This document shows, one piece after another, positions 4,919 to 64,000 of a stretch of 64,000 nucleotides of DNA. A program made the position numbers and the translations under genes. The notes under the pieces were generated by a model. It was not told where the DNA came from. It saw only the letters and a program-made list of their open reading frames with translations, and did no database searches. Origin of the DNA: a phage; sequence record PX969468.1. One strand, 5' to 3'. Positions within the stretch are counted from its first letter, which is position 1. Every line of letters starts with the position of its first letter.

Positions 4919-6990
4919 TGGCAATAGCTGTTTTTAAACCTTACCGTGATTACTCTACAATGGCTGCACGGTTTCATTACCGCACAGTTCAAGATACTGC
5001 AGTTCCAGGTAGGGATTATGATCATGTTGAGGGTGATATAACTATTCCGGTTGGGGCAACCAGTATTGAGATTCCTGTAGAAATTGTTGACAAATTGCCA
5101 AACAGGTTGCCAAGAAGCTTCTTTATGGAGTTTTCATCAAACTCCCAAGGGGTTATGATTGGAACACAAAGAGCGAAATGTACAATAGTTTCAGATGAGA
5201 ATCTTGACAGAATATCTTGGGATACCGTTGAGGAGAGAATGTTTCACCCAAGATACTGGGTTACAACCACACAGCAGACTGAAAGCACCTGTATTGTTGC
5301 GGATAATAACTGCTGTATTAACCGTTTAGTGTCAAGAACATATGGAGGCATGGCTGGGTGCATTTGGGAAACAGTTGACAAGTATGACCATTTCGGTATT
5401 GGATTTGATGATCACTACGAGATGAGAAACACCAAGCTTTGGTTCAGAATGTCAATAACCAATGCCAGCAACTTTTCCACCCCTGAAAAGATGATTATGA
5501 CTGTAGACCTTGTTGATGGTACAATCATCTATGTTCCTTTAGCTCAATATGCTGTCAGCATCTCAGAGGATAAGAATGTTGCAGAAATTCATATTGATTT
5601 CGAGGACTGCGTCGGGATGGACCAGAACAACAACATGATGGGTGTTGATCCTCGGCAGGTGAGAAGGATTCTAATACCACTTATGCCTAAAGATTGGGTA
5701 GGTAATAGCACAGACCCGAGAACGGAAAATGTAGAGTGTGAGCTGCGTCTAGATCTGCTTCAGCCGGACACAGGCTGGAAAATGATGCAACTTAACAATA
5801 TCCAGGTGAAAGAGCACGACGTCGGGATCTGCACAGCATATGACGATATGTGGAACGTATCCCCTTTAAGGGTGTTGAGCAATATCAAGCGCCTTGGCTA
5901 TACCGGAACCATAAATCATTATGTTGGTATGAGTCATTATTATGACTACACATGGTCAGGAACCCAATGGTCTATAAACAAAACAGGGGCTCTAAACGCT
6001 GCAGCTTATAAATGGCATGATGATTTTATGTACAATGCCAAACGACATGACTTCGACGTTATGCAGTCTGTAAGCTTTGAGCTTTATAGCGATGCCTGCC
6101 CGTTGGAATGGACCCAGAGAGACTGGAACGATAACTATGCTAAAACAGGCTATACGCCTTGTAGTTACCTCCTGTCTCCAACCATTGAAGAGGGTATGAA
6201 TTTCCTTACTGCGGTATTTAAGAATTTTGCATCAGCCGCTATGAGAAACAACCTGCCAGTGATTATGCAGATTGGTGAACCGTGGTGGTGGTTCAATACC
6301 GATACTCGTAAGCCTTGTATTTATGACTACCCTACAAAGCAGGCGTTTTATGATGAGACTGGTGAATATGCACTAGACATTGGGACTATTGACGATCCTA
6401 AAACTGGCGGTGTTTATGACAAGTATGTAGCATTTTGTCGTGGTAAGCTTGGCGCTCGTATTGCAGCCATTTCAAAGGCAATAAAAGCACACGCTGCATC
6501 GGCTCAGATGACAGCTTTACTGTTTTTCCCCACTATTATGGAAACCGAGCTTACGCAAAAACTGAACCTTGCTGACCAATATAAAAAGGAAGCAGGTGCT
6601 CTTGATTTCTTCTGCACTGAGTGCTACGATTGGGTGATGCAGGGAGGTATTGAAAAGGCAAAAGAGTCTGTAAACATACCTATCGTTAAGTTAGGTTGGA
6701 AACCGTCTGAAATACAATACCTTGCAGGGTTCGTTCCTAGCAAAGAGCTTGCTCCGGTATATGGCTACGACCCAACCAGGAATTACCAAGAATTTTTATG
6801 GAGATGTATTTGCGGAAACATGGCAACCATAGAGTATAGATACCCTGAGGTAAAACAGTATGTGTGGGCATACCCGCAAGTAATGTCTGACAGCATCACT
6901 GTTACCGCTAGAGATTCTACCGTGCTTCATATGGGGCAGGTTGCTCTGAAAGGGTATGTAGAAGATGTTGTCCCGCCAGACTTCTCATAA
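4918..6990 (+). CDS. Structural-module protein with N-terminal Calx-beta-like domain
   Basis: 690-aa ORF; N-terminus TVQDTAVPGRDYDHVEGDITIPVGATSIEIPVEIVDK fits Calx-beta pattern. Confidence 0.55.
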   Translation: MAIAVFKPYRDYSTMAARFHYRTVQDTAVPGRDYDHVEGDITIPVGATSIEIPVEIVDKLPNRLPRSFFMEFSSNSQGVMIGTQRAKCTIVSDENLDRISWDTVEERMFHPRYWVTTTQQTESTCIVADNNCCINRLVSRTYGGMAGCIWETVDKYDHFGIGFDDHYEMRNTKLWFRMSITNASNFSTPEKMIMTVDLVDGTIIYVPLAQYAVSISEDKNVAEIHIDFEDCVGMDQNNNMMGVDPRQVRRILIPLMPKDWVGNSTDPRTENVECELRLDLLQPDTGWKMMQLNNIQVKEHDVGICTAYDDMWNVSPLRVLSNIKRLGYTGTINHYVGMSHYYDYTWSGTQWSINKTGALNAAAYKWHDDFMYNAKRHDFDVMQSVSFELYSDACPLEWTQRDWNDNYAKTGYTPCSYLLSPTIEEGMNFLTAVFKNFASAAMRNNLPVIMQIGEPWWWFNTDTRKPCIYDYPTKQAFYDETGEYALDIGTIDDPKTGGVYDKYVAFCRGKLGARIAAISKAIKAHAASAQMTALLFFPTIMETELTQKLNLADQYKKEAGALDFFCTECYDWVMQGGIEKAKESVNIPIVKLGWKPSEIQYLAGFVPSKELAPVYGYDPTRNYQEFLWRCICGNMATIEYRYPEVKQYVWAYPQVMSDSITVTARDSTVLHMGQVALKGYVEDVVPPDFS

Positions 6991-7002: not shown

Positions 7003-8043
7003 ATGTCAAAACCTAGTTTTCCATTAGAGATTTGGGCAGAGGAGGATCAGGTTCTGCCTAACACCCACAGACAGAACAGGCTACGCCCGATTGATGATTT
7101 GTGGAGAAAAGGTTGGGATCTTGGTCAAAAGCCCTCATGTGAAGAACTTAACTATATTTTCAATATGCTCGGAACTTGGGCAAAATACATTGCTGACGAG
7201 CAGATCCCCGCTCAAGAAGGCCGTTATCTGGTACGCGATAATAACTTGAGTGATCTTTTGAACATCCCTGTTGCCCGTAGAAACCTTGGGATTATTACTA
7301 AGGAAGAGGCAGACGCCAGGTATGTAAAAGTTACAGGTGATACAATGACAGGCCCATTGGGTTTGCAACGTATCAACTTTAAAGCTGCCGAGACAGACAG
7401 GGCTTGGATAGAGACAACTATTGGCCCAGATAAGACAACTCTCGACTTTGGGTTAAGTGATAATATTGGGTCGTTTGATGATGGTGGTACATCTACAGTA
7501 GATGCGTTTCGTTGGAGATTTCAGCCAACTCAGCCGGATATCAATCCGGAGTTCACTTTGATGTACCTTAACGCGATCACGGCTAACCGTGCGCTGTTGA
7601 AAGTGGTAGGCAATGTTGAAGTTGTCGATAACATGAGGTGCAATAACCTTACTATTAGCAATACAGCAACATTCACCAACTGTAATGTGGCTAGTCAGTT
7701 GACGGCTGGGTCAGTGTATGTTAATGGTGGTACAAGTTGTGACAGTATGGTTGTAAGAAGTCAGCACTGTGTTGTCGGTAACAGAAATGTGGTGCGCTCT
7801 GTAAATGGAGTGACGGCTAACGGTAACGGTGATGTAACAATCACTATCCCGCAGACAGGTGTGCAAGACATCAGAATCGGTGCAAGACTTGTTGACGGCG
7901 TTTCCGAATCTCCAATTCGCAACGGCTACGTTGTCACAGGCTGGCATTTCGGTGACAAAAAAGAGATGCGTGGTTCAACCTACTGGGCAGGACCTTTACA
8001 AAAACTTGTAAATGGTCAATGGATCACTGTTAATTATGCATAG
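7003..8043 (+). CDS. Tail fibre protein (receptor-binding, P2 gpH-like C-terminus)
   Basis: 346 aa; C-terminus LQKLVNGQWITVNYA resembles recalled P2 gpH end (IQKYINGTWYNV); RBS AGGAGA. Confidence 0.7.
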   Translation: MSKPSFPLEIWAEEDQVLPNTHRQNRLRPIDDLWRKGWDLGQKPSCEELNYIFNMLGTWAKYIADEQIPAQEGRYLVRDNNLSDLLNIPVARRNLGIITKEEADARYVKVTGDTMTGPLGLQRINFKAAETDRAWIETTIGPDKTTLDFGLSDNIGSFDDGGTSTVDAFRWRFQPTQPDINPEFTLMYLNAITANRALLKVVGNVEVVDNMRCNNLTISNTATFTNCNVASQLTAGSVYVNGGTSCDSMVVRSQHCVVGNRNVVRSVNGVTANGNGDVTITIPQTGVQDIRIGARLVDGVSESPIRNGYVVTGWHFGDKKEMRGSTYWAGPLQKLVNGQWITVNYA

Positions 8044-50627: not shown

Positions 50628-50639
50628 GATATTTATGGT

Positions 50640-51250
50640 GGTATTTATTTTAAAATTATAAAAATTTTAGGTGATGAGGGAAAATATGTAATGGATTTTC
50701 CCTTATTTATCAGATATTTGCAGATATTTGGAAATCCTTAGAAAATCAGAAAATGGATCGAAAACTAAAATGGATTTTTCAGAGTAGGCGCGACAAGCTG
50801 AATAACTCATCCTATCGTTTGCACCATATTCCAGGCCACCATTATAGATTTCCCACACATGCTAACCTCCCTCTACTAGAACTTCCTCCACTTACCCTTG
50901 ACCTTCTATGGTAACAATCTAACCACTATCTTGAAGTTGCGGTGCAGCTTTCCAGGTACTCGATCTACTTTTCATTTCAGGGCTTGGATTTTCTGAAAAT
51001 TTTTCTCGATAAATTTCTCAGTACTCGATCTGTTTTTCGTTTTCTGAATCGGATTTTCTGGAAATCGTTCCGGATCTAGGCCTGAAATTTTTAGGGACGA
51101 AATCGATTTTTCGTTTTCAGAAATGGATTTTTAAAATTTCTATATGGGAATATTTTAGTGGATACTATTTTATAGGAAATTGTTACGGAGGGTAATTAGC
51201 GTGCTAATTAAATTTATTAAATGCGAGGAGTTCTCATTTAGAATTTTGAA
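50640..51250. repeat. AT-rich non-coding region with short direct repeats (origin-like)
   Basis: AAATGGATTTTTC / GGATTTTCTG copies, tandem CAGATATTTG x2, GTACTCGATCT x2, GATTTTTCGTTTTC x2. Confidence 0.6.
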
Positions 51251-51278
51251 TGATAATCATTCTCGTTTGCAGAATAAC

Positions 51279-51308
51279 GGGCAGGCCCGGTGATTGTCTC
51301 CCGGCCCC
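51279..51308. repeat. Left copy of 25-bp inverted repeat GGCAGGCC(C/T)GGTGATTGTCTCCC
   Basis: Matches reverse complement of 61065-61089 at 23/25 positions; partial third copy at 51419-51437. Confidence 0.7.
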
Positions 51309-51675
51309 TACTGCCCCGGCTTGTTATTATAGTAACACACAGGACAAAGAAAGCAAGAAGTTTTTGCATAAATTTTTAGACGATAATGATAATCGTTCTC
51401 ATTTCATGCAGCGCCCATCCCCGGTGGTTGTCTCCCCCGTCACCGGTGCCTGCCGTCCTTTCGATATGTATATTGTGCCACCTGGCGGGGCCGCTGTCAA
51501 CACTTTTCAAAAAATTTTTTCTAACCTGATGCGCTAACCGCTGCAACCTGGCGGGGCCAGCCTGGCAGGACCTAACTGACCAGGTAGGGGAGAATGAAGG
51601 CTTGCAAACCTGGTGGGCCTATGCTATAGGATAGGTAACAATTGAAGAGGAGGTACAAAAAATGAAAGGTAATAT

Positions 51676-61937: not shown

Positions 61938-62357
61938 ATGAACATTAAATCTAATAATCCGGCATATAGCTTTGATAACGCTTTTTGTCACGGTCCGGCG
62001 GCGAAAGGATTCGAAATCGATGGTAAACTAATTATTGTCAATGTTGACGGGGAAGAGGTTGCAGTATATCCGGTGGCAGACGTAAAAAGCCGTTTACAAT
62101 GCCGCATTGATGTTACCGCCTATCAGCTTGATCCGGTCCGCATAGTTGCCCTGGTCCTGGAAGAAGAAATTAAAGCCATGCACCATAGCAACAGATTTAT
62201 TGGTGACGCGCAGGATAATATGAAAGTATGCCGCCATAAAGTTAATGAAGTGCTTAAAGAGTACGGCTATAAAGATCTTATGATCAAACGTGAGGAAAAA
62301 TTCCGCTACCGTAACGACCTGGCAAATCGAATCTATGAAATATACGAATCATTATAA
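61938..62357 (+). CDS. Early-region protein (139 aa)
   Basis: promoter TTGACA-N17-TATATT at 61861-61889, RBS AGAGG. Confidence 0.55.
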   Translation: MNIKSNNPAYSFDNAFCHGPAAKGFEIDGKLIIVNVDGEEVAVYPVADVKSRLQCRIDVTAYQLDPVRIVALVLEEEIKAMHHSNRFIGDAQDNMKVCRHKVNEVLKEYGYKDLMIKREEKFRYRNDLANRIYEIYESL

Positions 62358-62376
62358 TTTCTTAACTAAACTATCA

Positions 62377-62403
62377 GGGGCTTTAAAAGGCCCCTTTCTT
62401 TTT
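62377..62403 (+). terminator. Intrinsic terminator closing the small-gene block
   Basis: GGGGCT-TTAAAA-GGCCCC followed by TTTCTTTTTG. Confidence 0.7.
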
Positions 62404-63020
62404 GTCTGTATTTCTCCTACCACAAACGGCCCAGCCTGGCAAGTGGAATAATTGACTAGCCATCAATCCCACACACTGTACAAATATACATGGAAAATAA
62501 CTATTGCATAATCTTTCATTGTGTGGTAGCAGGGACATTTTTACCCGTTTTCTCTCCCAAAAGTGCACGTAATGCCGCTATTGCACAAATTTTAACCTGA
62601 TGCACATCTCCAATATCTTGTCAACAACTAAAAATCTTTATAAGTCATACACTTACACAACATCGAAAGCGTGTCCTACGCGAAAAATCGAGTATAACTA
62701 TAGCCGCCAAATCTCAGAATTCACGTACGCACGCCATTCTATAGCCTGCAAAGTATTTATTCCAACCACAGAATAACGGAATAGTCAATACCTGCATAAA
62801 ATAATTATTCGTGTAAACTGCATAACATAAATCCGCTCAGGTGTCAACATTTTTCGTAAACAGTCCGAAATTATCACGATGAGTTATCATAAACAAAGAA
62901 ATCTTTAGTCGTCTAATGTTTACTGTACATTACTATACTGACTGGAATCATTAGATGACTAAGAGAAAGATAAGGAATAATTAACAATGTAAGTATTTTA
63001 CCTGCAACAATAAGGCAACT

Positions 63021-63040
63021 ATGCAAACGAATGGCATGGC
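63021..63040. repeat. 20-bp direct repeat, copy 1
   Basis: ATGCAAACGAATGGCATGGC; second copy at 63325-63344 with one mismatch. Confidence 0.7.
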
Positions 63041-63053
63041 GCGACGGAGTCGC

Positions 63054-63205
63054 GACATAATATAAAAGCAGTAACAATCACCCCCGTGATAGTTTTTCTG
63101 CAATCTATTATTCAGATCATAGTTGCCTTGTATCCAGTTAATCATGACATAATAAGCAAGGCAACTATAGATCTGATAATAGTTGCCCTGCTTTTATATT
63201 ATGTC
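63054..63205. repeat. Perfect 18-bp inverted repeat pair enclosing AAGGCAACTAT sites
   Basis: GACATAATATAAAAGCAG (63054-63071) and CTGCTTTTATATTATGTC (63188-63205); four AAGGCAACTAT-like copies between 63011 and 63190 in both orientations. Confidence 0.75.
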
Positions 63206-63256
63206 ATAGAAACGCCCGAAGGGGTGACCTAGTCACCTGGCATAGCCAGCGAAAGA

Positions 63257-63320
63257 TTATTAACTTGTTAATCGTCAGCTTGTTGGCTGTTAGCTTGTCA
63301 ATTGTTAACTTGTTAATTGT
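63257..63320. repeat. Iteron array 1 (4 x about 15 bp, TTAACTTGTTAAT-like)
   Basis: TTAACTTGTTAATCG, TCAGCTTGTTGGCTG, TTAGCTTGTCAATTG, TTAACTTGTTAATTG in tandem. Confidence 0.7.
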
Positions 63321-63324
63321 TTTC

Positions 63325-63344
63325 ATGCAAACGAATGTCATGGC
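63325..63344. repeat. 20-bp direct repeat, copy 2
   Basis: ATGCAAACGAATGTCATGGC. Confidence 0.7.
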
Positions 63345-63356
63345 TTATCATATCTG

Positions 63357-63432
63357 TGTAAACTGTCAAGGTGTAAACTATCCAGGCGTAAACAGTCTAT
63401 GCGGGAACAATCTATACGTGAACAGTGAAACA
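63357..63432. repeat. Iteron array 2 (5 x about 15 bp, GTAAAC-N3-TC-like)
   Basis: GTGTAAACTGTCAAG, GTGTAAACTATCCAG, GCGTAAACAGTCTAT, GGGAACAATCTATAC, GTGAACAGTGAAACA. Confidence 0.7.
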
Positions 63433-63453
63433 TGAAATAATAACAGTCGTTAT

Positions 63454-63545
63454 TGTGTCGAAAGTGTATAAAGTGTCAGATTATGGCATATTGTGTGACA
63501 TTGTGTCAAAGGTAAAAGTGTCAAAAGTGGCAAAAGTGTCAGACA
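63454..63545. repeat. Iteron array 3 (about 8 x 10 bp, AAGTGTCA-like)
   Basis: TTGTGTCGAA, AAGTGTATAA, AAGTGTCAGA, TTGTGTGACA, TTGTGTCAAA, AAGTGTCAAA, AAGTGGCAAA, AAGTGTCAGA at about 10-bp period. Confidence 0.7.
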
Positions 63546-64000
63546 AGTTTTTCTCCTCTTTGTCAAGTGCTGCATGAAAAATTTACAAACTGGTATGGTA
63601 GCATTTTTGCGGCCCTGTTTACATTCAGGAGTGTATGTATAACCCTTGTTGTGTGGGCGTTTAGACGTCTGGACGGTCAGAAGTCCGCAGGTTAATATCT
63701 AATCTATTGGTCGCTAACTATATCCCCCACAAATAATAAGAAATGCAATTGTTATGTGCGTAAACAGTGACTCATGTTATCAATCCCTGTATGTATCGCC
63801 AGTGGTGCGCATAATGGGTATTATGTTAAATTGCCCGTAATGATAACTATTCTCACAATGATAGGTATTCTCATTCAACCCCGCAAAACAGGTTGCAAAT
63901 GTTGTGCCACTGTGTGAACGGCCTCACCTATTAATCTGCCTCACTGCCCCGATATTTGAGAATTGTTATAAGAATGAGAAGTATTCCCATTTCGTCCGCC

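Follow-up and report, generated by a model that had tools for sequence, protein, structure and literature searches.

In phage T7, the terminal repeat (TR) is duplicated during a multi-step cutting of concatemers, in which a hairpin intermediate has been seen (PMC4281155), and in phages of the T7 group a variable number (11-34) of short repeats lies between the left TR and the first promoter (PMC5923468). In the Mydovirus KPP-1, a 514-bp direct terminal repeat (DTR) was identified by 2x coverage and PhageTerm (PMC9862379). For Vequintavirus, the genus of rV5-like coliphages, virion DNA of phage Gotham was reported to have 459-bp terminal repeats and a single specific packaging start; the method of repeat detection is not stated in that report, and three other, permuted phages are noted there as being without regions of 2x coverage (PMC7471380, Dias et al. 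2020). Here, we analyse positions 62407-64000 of a 64-kb stretch of phage DNA (PX969468.1; hereafter the window), which ends at position 64000, and conclude that this region is very likely the DTR end of a Vequintavirus chromosome.

The 459-bp DTR itself is already known for Vequintavirus, being both published and annotated in GenBank. The published note on Gotham gives its length only, leaving the arrays, palindrome and motifs of the region out of its description, and some records merely carry short 'repeat_region' tags. No description of the flanking arrays, the palindrome, the motifs or an rV5 origin was found in the literature searched, in which this fine anatomy appears to be undescribed. 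Judged by sequence similarity, the window is Vequintavirus (rV5-like coliphage) DNA: the region matched about 120 Vequintavirus records at 87-96% nucleotide identity (blastn), nearly all of which leave it without annotation, and the closest relative is 98.7% identical over the last 12 kb of the window. The same DNA was not found outside Vequintavirus by blastn in its distant mode. Our full reading is that the region forms the right-hand non-coding end of a linear, non-permuted Vequintavirus chromosome, with 63542-64000 as the DTR, 64000 as the physical end and the ends made as proposed below; we give this reading a probability of roughly 0.8.

A direct terminal repeat ends the window

The segment 63542-64000 aligned along all of its 459 bp with the DTRs of relatives, at 94-95% identity, and the sequences at both boundaries are the same. 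In four close relatives the same sequence stands in direct orientation at both ends of the record, as an exact repeat of 459 bp in HdK5 (MK373780), Gotham and ECP2309 and of 458 bp in YN3. Positions 1-459 and 136405-136863 of ECP2309 are 100% identical, and the Gotham record (MT682716) itself annotates a repeat_region at 1-459 and at 136567-137025. HdK5, EdH4, YN3, Gotham and ECP2309 all have the 459 bp at positions 1-459 plus a second copy in the record, and ECP2303, Pr121LW, EcoIv14a_Aya and version 2 of bov10K2/bov25_3 carry the DTR once, at the start or end of the record. At least 10 records start or end exactly at a DTR boundary. A scan of IMG/VR for the exact pattern with the DTR start returned one contig.

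Both boundaries are conserved and the repeat between them is non-coding (see below). The inner boundary reads ...TGTCA^GACAAGTTTTT... (TGTCA^GACAAG, the caret marking the cut) and the outer boundary ...CGTCCGCC^TGGCAGC..., the same in HdK5, YN3, Gotham and ECP2309; the short forms TGTCA^GACAAG and CGTCCGCC^TGGCAGC are identical in all genomes examined. The last base of the window coincides with the outer boundary. At the inner boundary, the alignment switches sharply from indel-rich sequence with 4-38% invariant columns to indel-free sequence with 80-95% invariant columns. Because the hypervariable zone before this boundary ends in TGTCA in every genome (12 of 12, with one to six TGTCA in its last 110 nucleotides), the cut site is the last unit of a TGTCA array. 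Since 63542-64000 is a DTR, the region covers one physical end of the virion DNA, and because DTR ends come from sequence-specific terminase cutting, it would also be a packaging site.

Anatomy of the junction

The features of the region and its flank are listed in Table 1. In the junction alignment, column conservation was taken from eight genomes, and lengths, copy counts and palindrome pairs from 12 genomes. Tandem arrays were scored with Tandem Repeats Finder (TRF).

Table 1. Coordinates of the features at the right-hand end of the window
Feature	Position	Strand	Description
Last gene	61938-62357	+	match to PHROG 12277
Intrinsic terminator of last gene	62376-62403	+	8-bp stem 62376-62395, 5 GC pairs, then T-run; conserved in relatives
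Spacer	62407-63008		66-90% invariant columns, no indels in 8 genomes
Inverted repeat in spacer	62905-62926/62941-62962		repeat search
Palindromic element	63010-63205		196 bp, 92-98% invariant, best-conserved part of junction
Inverted repeat	63012-63023/63118-63129		repeat search
Small hairpin in palindromic element	63019-63039		fold prediction
20-bp direct repeat, copy 1	63021-63040		ATGCAAACGAATGGCATGGC
GC hairpin in palindromic element	63040-63054		fold prediction
Inverted repeat	63054-63071/63188-63205		18 nt, 100% complementary
Long imperfect hairpin/cruciform	63054-63205		fold prediction
Inverted repeat	63119-63130/63157-63168		repeat search
Inverted repeat	63154-63168/63179-63193		repeat search
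Tandem array 1	63256-63321		15-bp units ARCTTGTYRRYTGTT, 4.4 copies, TRF score 69
20-bp direct repeat, copy 2	63325-63344		ATGCAAACGAATGTCATGGC
Tandem array 2	63356-63434		TRF 63356-63397 + 63391-63426, period 15
Array 3	63455-63541		(A)AGTGTCA/TGTCA units, 9-15-bp spacing, up to DTR boundary
Inner DTR boundary	63537-63545		small palindrome TGTCA^GACA; cut between 63541 and 63542
Direct terminal repeat (DTR)	63542-64000		459 bp; 80-95% invariant, no indels
18-bp tandem pair in DTR	63839-63873		repeat search
TGAGAAT-N-ATTCTCA-like palindromic sites + GATATTTGAGAATTGT	63839-63989		sites 63841, 63859, 63957, 63975

The palindromic element has a length of 196 bp in 11 of the 12 genomes, the exception being rV5 with a 33-bp insert in the apical loop. 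It contains GGCAACTAT four times in alternating orientation (63014+, 63119-, 63160+ and 63179-). Folded as single-stranded DNA, 63005-63212 gave -48.1 kcal/mol (z = -9.5), and five of the 69 predicted pairs are variable among the genomes. One copy of the 20-bp direct repeat, whose common form is ATGCAAACGAATG(G/T)CATGGC, lies within this element and the other beyond array 1; both are kept in all eight aligned genomes, and the spacing between them varies because array 1 sits between the copies.

From the end of the palindrome to the DTR (63206-63541) the sequence is hypervariable, with a length of 195-336 bp among genomes, and each of the three arrays differs in its sequence and number of copies between genomes that are 87-99% identical. 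Array 1, counted as CTTGY, has zero to four copies in relatives. Array 2 comprises five G(T/G)RAAC units in exact 15-bp phase (63358, 63373, 63388, 63403 and 63418) in the window and three to eight in relatives. In array 3, the TRF match covers 63503-63541 (period 9, 4.7 copies), and a 33-nucleotide expansion is present in the window and in ECP2309.

Some length differences had a particular form. The insert of about 33 bp in the apical loop of rV5 (equivalent to ~63149) is GC-rich and contains TAAACTCAGGCATAGCCTTCGTCTCGAGGATGT, and a similar GC-rich insert of about 33 bp, TAAACTCGGGAGCATAGCCCTCGTCTCAAGGGTGT, stands at a second position in a second genome, namely in array 1 of SYGMH1 (equivalent to ~63317). 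A 48-bp segment with GGCATAGCC (window 63206-63253) is missing from A6-1 and Gotham. To judge from their sequences, these inserts and this segment look like small mobile or templated insertions.

The region is much richer in repeats than its surroundings. All five TRF hits with a score of at least 50 in the 64-kb window fall inside it. Pairs of 9-mers numbered 42 direct, 10 local and 32 inverted, compared with means of 11.8, 0.7 and 8.3 in the other 305 windows of 1594 bp and of 9.6, 0.8 and 10.5 in dinucleotide shuffles, and both GTAAACAG and GGCAACTAT occur four times in the region versus once in the other 62 kb. Repeat density is thus well above shuffles and higher than almost anywhere else in the window, which agrees with the repeat-packed region described in the initial annotation. 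Its individual elements were also recovered: nested inverted repeats, placed by it at 63009-63205, lie between 63012 and 63205, the 20-bp pair is present at 63021 and 63325, and of the three tandem arrays, all present, the first two have the period of 15 bp given for them, the third having a period of 9 rather than 10 bp.

The region is non-coding

No conserved open reading frame (ORF) was found after the terminator. The longest ORFs (61, 58, 56 and 54 residues) are broken by stops or frameshifts in most of seven relatives, and the nine longest ORFs of the region (42-61 residues) had no match in PHROGs, in which the last real gene does find a match. The one ORF intact in all eight genomes, 63774-63917 (47 residues), lies within the DTR; its variable sites are distributed 6/3/7 over the three codon positions and nearly all changes alter the amino acid, a substitution pattern that is not coding-like. 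A scan of the region against Rfam 15 gave only two chance-level matches (E = 0.1-0.2, far below the gathering score), Rfam found nothing on the complete junction of phage AlexBoehm, and a tRNA scan of the window found none. These data indicate that the region is non-coding, which bears out the earlier statement that no convincing ORF follows the terminator.

Gene context, replication origin and partition

Gene context was taken from the well-annotated relative AlexBoehm. On this basis, tail-fibre genes come first in the window, then a short minus-strand block and then a long plus-strand block, which contains rIIA/B, helicase, primase-helicase and DNA polymerase, continues with about 45 small genes and ends at 62357. 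The terminator of its last gene, claimed at 62377-62403 and found as a stem at 62376-62395 plus T-run, marks the start of the gene-free terminal region. The opposite block, with ligase, nucleases and ribonucleotide reductases followed by about 45 small genes, is also transcribed towards the region, and each block is about 37 kb long. The claim that genes are transcribed towards the region was therefore correct, and because both blocks run towards it, the region is a point of convergence rather than one of divergent promoters. Circularised assemblies contain about 2.5 kb of gene-free DNA here, part of which falls in the window.

On the other side of the junction, the last gene of the opposite block is closely followed by some 450 bp of non-coding sequence (SYGMH1 7100-7549). 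These are almost 100% identical in seven genomes that differ by 5-15% elsewhere, and a dispersed CTCTTCAGG repeat with four copies adjoins them. The ultra-conserved 436 nucleotides of this side gave no RNA-fold signal (z = -0.65 and +0.99) and no Rfam match.

This context bears on whether the region is a replication origin, in which a phage initiator would use the arrays as iterons and the palindrome plus AT-rich DNA would serve for unwinding or priming; such an origin could coexist with a terminus. Direct repeats of one orientation in exact 15-bp phase, a large conserved palindrome and a GC content of 0.38-0.40 compared with about 0.44 for the window are consistent with it, and no origin has been mapped in rV5-like phages, a search by the authors of the rV5 study having yielded only skew changes tied to transcription (PMC3606486). 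However, the DnaA boxes TTATCCACA and TTATNCACA are absent from the region, no recognisable initiator-like gene adjoins it, its neighbours being small unknowns, and the GC content is only mildly lowered, short of an AT-rich element. The putative iterons are not conserved among close relatives: their number and sequence vary among near-identical genomes, unlike iterons matched to a conserved initiator. Since both ~37-kb blocks run towards the region, forks leaving it would meet transcription head-on, and the cumulative GC skew reaches its peak here, the pattern of a convergence point. Together, these observations make an origin unlikely.

A plasmid-like partition (centromere) site, for which the presence of tandem repeats is the sole point, is effectively refuted. 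Vequintavirus is a virulent genus, the flanks lack annotated genes of ParA/ParB type, and the region had no match in 5,426 complete E. coli genomes. Its sole plasmid match (PLSDB CP057073.1, 137,565 bp, positions 5508-6930) is a complete rV5-like phage genome. The entry, listed as a non-mobilizable 'plasmid' of E. coli and derived from pooled cattle faeces, is presumably phage DNA that was co-assembled with its host. Another labelling question concerns 18 unannotated GenBank 'Campylobacter phage' records (MG0656xx, e.g. MG065662 and MG065647), some of them fragments, which are 90-95% identical to the region and are probably mislabelled or contaminant Vequintavirus genomes.

Palindromic motifs of the outer DTR and possible regulation

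Palindromic sites with at least 11 of 14 matches to TGAGAAT-N-ATTCTCA number four in the outer 160 bp of the DTR versus 11 in the other 63.8 kb. Related sites recur inside the window, in a second gene-poor, repeat-rich stretch (50628-51650) that has the lowest GC content of the window (0.376) and lies between the replication genes and about 30 small genes running to the genome end. It holds three direct repeats of about 65 bp (50946-51131) and two units of about 135 bp, each with AATGATAATC(A/G)TTCTC followed by CCCGGTG(A/G)TTGTCTCCC. Its equivalent in AlexBoehm (78915-80057) is almost gene-free, and an Rfam scan of the stretch gave no match. The stretch may supply promoters or operators for the terminal gene block.

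Two sites in this stretch resemble the E. coli Fur consensus, GATAATGATAATCGTTCTC at 51382-51400 (17 of 19 positions) and TTGAATGATAATCATTCTC at 51246-51264 (15 of 19), and the DTR site at 63836-63854 matches at 14 of 19. In the whole window, 10 candidate Fur-box-like sites have at least 14 of 19 matches, compared with about three in composition-matched shuffles. Although the internal sites near 51.3 kb reach 15-17 of 19, a Fur-box reading of the DTR motif was not adopted, its site there reaching 14 of 19.

The recurrence of the motif at an internal, gene-poor position, where it comes close to a Fur box, is one observation in favour of a regulatory or transcribed non-coding region, i.e. operators, promoters or a non-coding RNA unrelated to genome ends or replication. 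In addition, the seven TTGACA hexamers of the region (62619, 62842, 63296, 63364, 63504, 63519 and 63561) are all on the minus strand, one sigma-70-like site with 11 of 12 matches lies on the minus strand at 63509-63480, and the rV5-like phage PhiTE has a repeat-based non-coding RNA locus (PMC3475682). We nevertheless consider this explanation quite unlikely. Neither the region nor the full junction had a usable Rfam match, even at E <= 1, promoter-like sites were barely above shuffles (13 versus 8.7 +/- 2.7), the best sigma-70-like site falls within the hypervariable zone and is missing in close relatives, a transcript from the minus strand would find no gene downstream to express, and the DTR site itself agrees with the Fur box only at 14 of 19 positions. 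Several of the TTGACA hexamers belong to array units, and transcription from the minus strand would run antisense to the last genes.

Proposed formation of the chromosome ends

In the mechanism that we propose, genomes would join through the DTR into concatemers during replication, giving a junction of about 2.5 kb that consists of 1.1 kb of unique DNA, a single shared DTR and about 1 kb of the other genome end. The terminase, with or without accessory DNA-binding proteins, would recognise sites in this junction and cut at two fixed boundaries, and the 459 bp between the cuts would be duplicated to leave a copy at both ends of each packaged genome, as in T7/T3. The best candidate recognition sites are the TGTCA array, the last unit of which would be the cut site, and the palindromic motifs of the outer DTR. 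The invariant 196-bp palindrome is a candidate hairpin or cruciform intermediate, or a protein platform, for repeat duplication, and the 15-bp arrays may be slippage-prone protein-binding or spacer DNA, like the variable arrays beside the terminal repeats of the T7 group. By analogy with T7, we infer that arrays and palindrome may contribute to recognition by the terminase or to duplication of the DTR; the particular role proposed for each repeat is tentative, with odds at or slightly below even.

A more far-reaching and doubtful possibility is that the junction is a self-contained, T7-like end-making machine in a large myovirus without a T7-type RNA polymerase. The terminase or an accessory protein would then load on the hypervariable arrays, both the TGTCA and the 15-bp ones, and make its cut behind the last TGTCA. 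Extrusion of the 196-bp palindrome would yield a hairpin to prime duplication of the 459-bp repeat, and the other cut would be marked by the TGAGAAT-N-ATTCTCA sites, which are conserved in the junctions of Vequintavirus, Mydovirus and Phapecoctavirus. The same DNA might also serve as a replication start, which would couple the ends, repeat duplication and initiation.

Several points weigh against a non-permuted chromosome with ends made in this way. The window holds one end, and the second DTR copy of this genome lies outside it. A circularly permuted genome was described for rV5 (PMC3606486), PhageTerm called four bovine vequintaviruses 'circular permutated' from Nextera libraries, and it called BpE1AUH headful from the assembly of a phage cocktail. 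Later submitters may have copied an earlier start convention, so that the records are not all independent. The junction elements named above are candidates for terminase binding, and the DTR motif family, which also occurs at an internal, Fur-box-like position, would suit a regulatory operator no less than a packaging signal. Covariation in the palindrome is uninformative either way, because the element is too conserved (5/69 pairs vary).

The permutation and headful calls, together with the arbitrary start points at which most records were deposited, agree with a headful pac region in a permuted, terminally redundant genome, for which the 459-bp 'repeat' would be a convention of assembly or annotation. 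Such a packaging mode is very improbable here. The repeats are exact at 458-459 bp with identical boundaries, far longer than assembler k-mer overlaps, and the same exact repeat with the same ends, rather than distributed ends, recurs in records of several laboratories. Defined 459-bp repeats and a single packaging start were reported for Gotham (PMC7471380). The 'permuted' bovine phages had been sequenced from tagmentation libraries, with records later re-issued to start at the DTR boundary, and sister genera have short DTRs at the same genomic position. Among the functions first suggested for the region, the terminal-repeat junction thus stands, in the form of a 459-bp DTR that would carry packaging with it; an origin found no positive support, and partition falls away. 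It was the comparison with related genomes, suggested at the outset as a check, that placed the DTR at both ends of four related records.

Implications

Collections for therapy and biocontrol make wide use of rV5-like coliphages, and most of the about 120 deposited genomes, as well as several papers, still treat their genomes as permuted with arbitrary start points. Recognising the true chromosome end fixes the orientation and annotation of these genomes. A DTR end would also explain the conspicuous 2.5-kb 'gene desert' and would tell engineers which DNA to keep intact for packaging. The anatomy described here, with a cut at the end of a slippage-prone TGTCA array, a 196-bp palindrome and a motif found in three genera, suggests hypotheses on how short DTRs may form outside the T7 group.

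Comparison with known systems

The DTRs of Gotham, HdK5, EdH4, ECP2309 and YN3 are the same DNA as 63542-64000. Because blastn found no homologous DNA outside Vequintavirus, comparison across genera relied on short motifs and the neighbouring protein. Homologues of the window's last gene with 89% amino acid identity occur in Phapecoctavirus, in several records next to the record end. Phapecoctavirus Mt1B1_P17 (NC_052662) has an exact 328-bp terminal repeat, with the homologous last gene 1.2 kb inside and transcribed outwards. Its DTR has almost nothing in common with that of the window except AATGATAATTATTCTCA and GATATTTGGGAATTGT, which keep their order and lie about as far from the end. In Mydovirus Seu621, convergent small genes are separated by a gene-free gap of 2 kb that includes the identical 17-mer AATGATAACTATTCTCA. 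A weak motif match in Enterobacter phage F2M1E was discarded as chance because it is located inside a gene.

The window thus resembles Mydovirus and Phapecoctavirus in having a gene-free stretch where two outward-transcribed blocks of small genes converge, and shares with these sister groups the motifs AATGATAAnTATTCTCA and GATATTTGRGAATTGT near the outer end. It differs from them in showing otherwise no nucleotide similarity and in the length of the DTR (459 bp versus 514 and 328 bp), and the GTAAAC arrays, TGTCA arrays and 196-bp palindrome are genus-specific, being absent from both. All three groups have a gene-free convergent junction, and short DTRs are documented in Vequintavirus, in Phapecoctavirus and in Mydovirus KPP-1.

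Like iteron origins (lambda ori, P1 oriR and plasmid iterons), the region has direct repeats of one orientation beside a structured, somewhat AT-rich segment. Unlike them, its repeats have periods of 15 and 9 bp, not about 20 bp in helical phase, and are hypervariable between close relatives, and DnaA boxes and an adjacent initiator gene are lacking.

The likeness to T7/T3 lies in a short, exact, non-coding DTR with fixed ends; as in the T7 group, short tandem repeats of variable number stand directly on the inner side of the terminal repeat, and an inverted repeat lies near the junction, where T7 forms its hairpin intermediate. Processing of T7 concatemers is coupled to transcription by T7 RNA polymerase. 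Different from T7/T3, the phage here is a 137-kb myovirus in which no phage RNA polymerase gene was seen, the DTR is about three times longer, the genes at both ends point outwards instead of all in one direction, and the terminase may be unrelated in sequence. The general picture is unchanged, and the Vequintavirus junction can be regarded as a variation on the T7-type theme.

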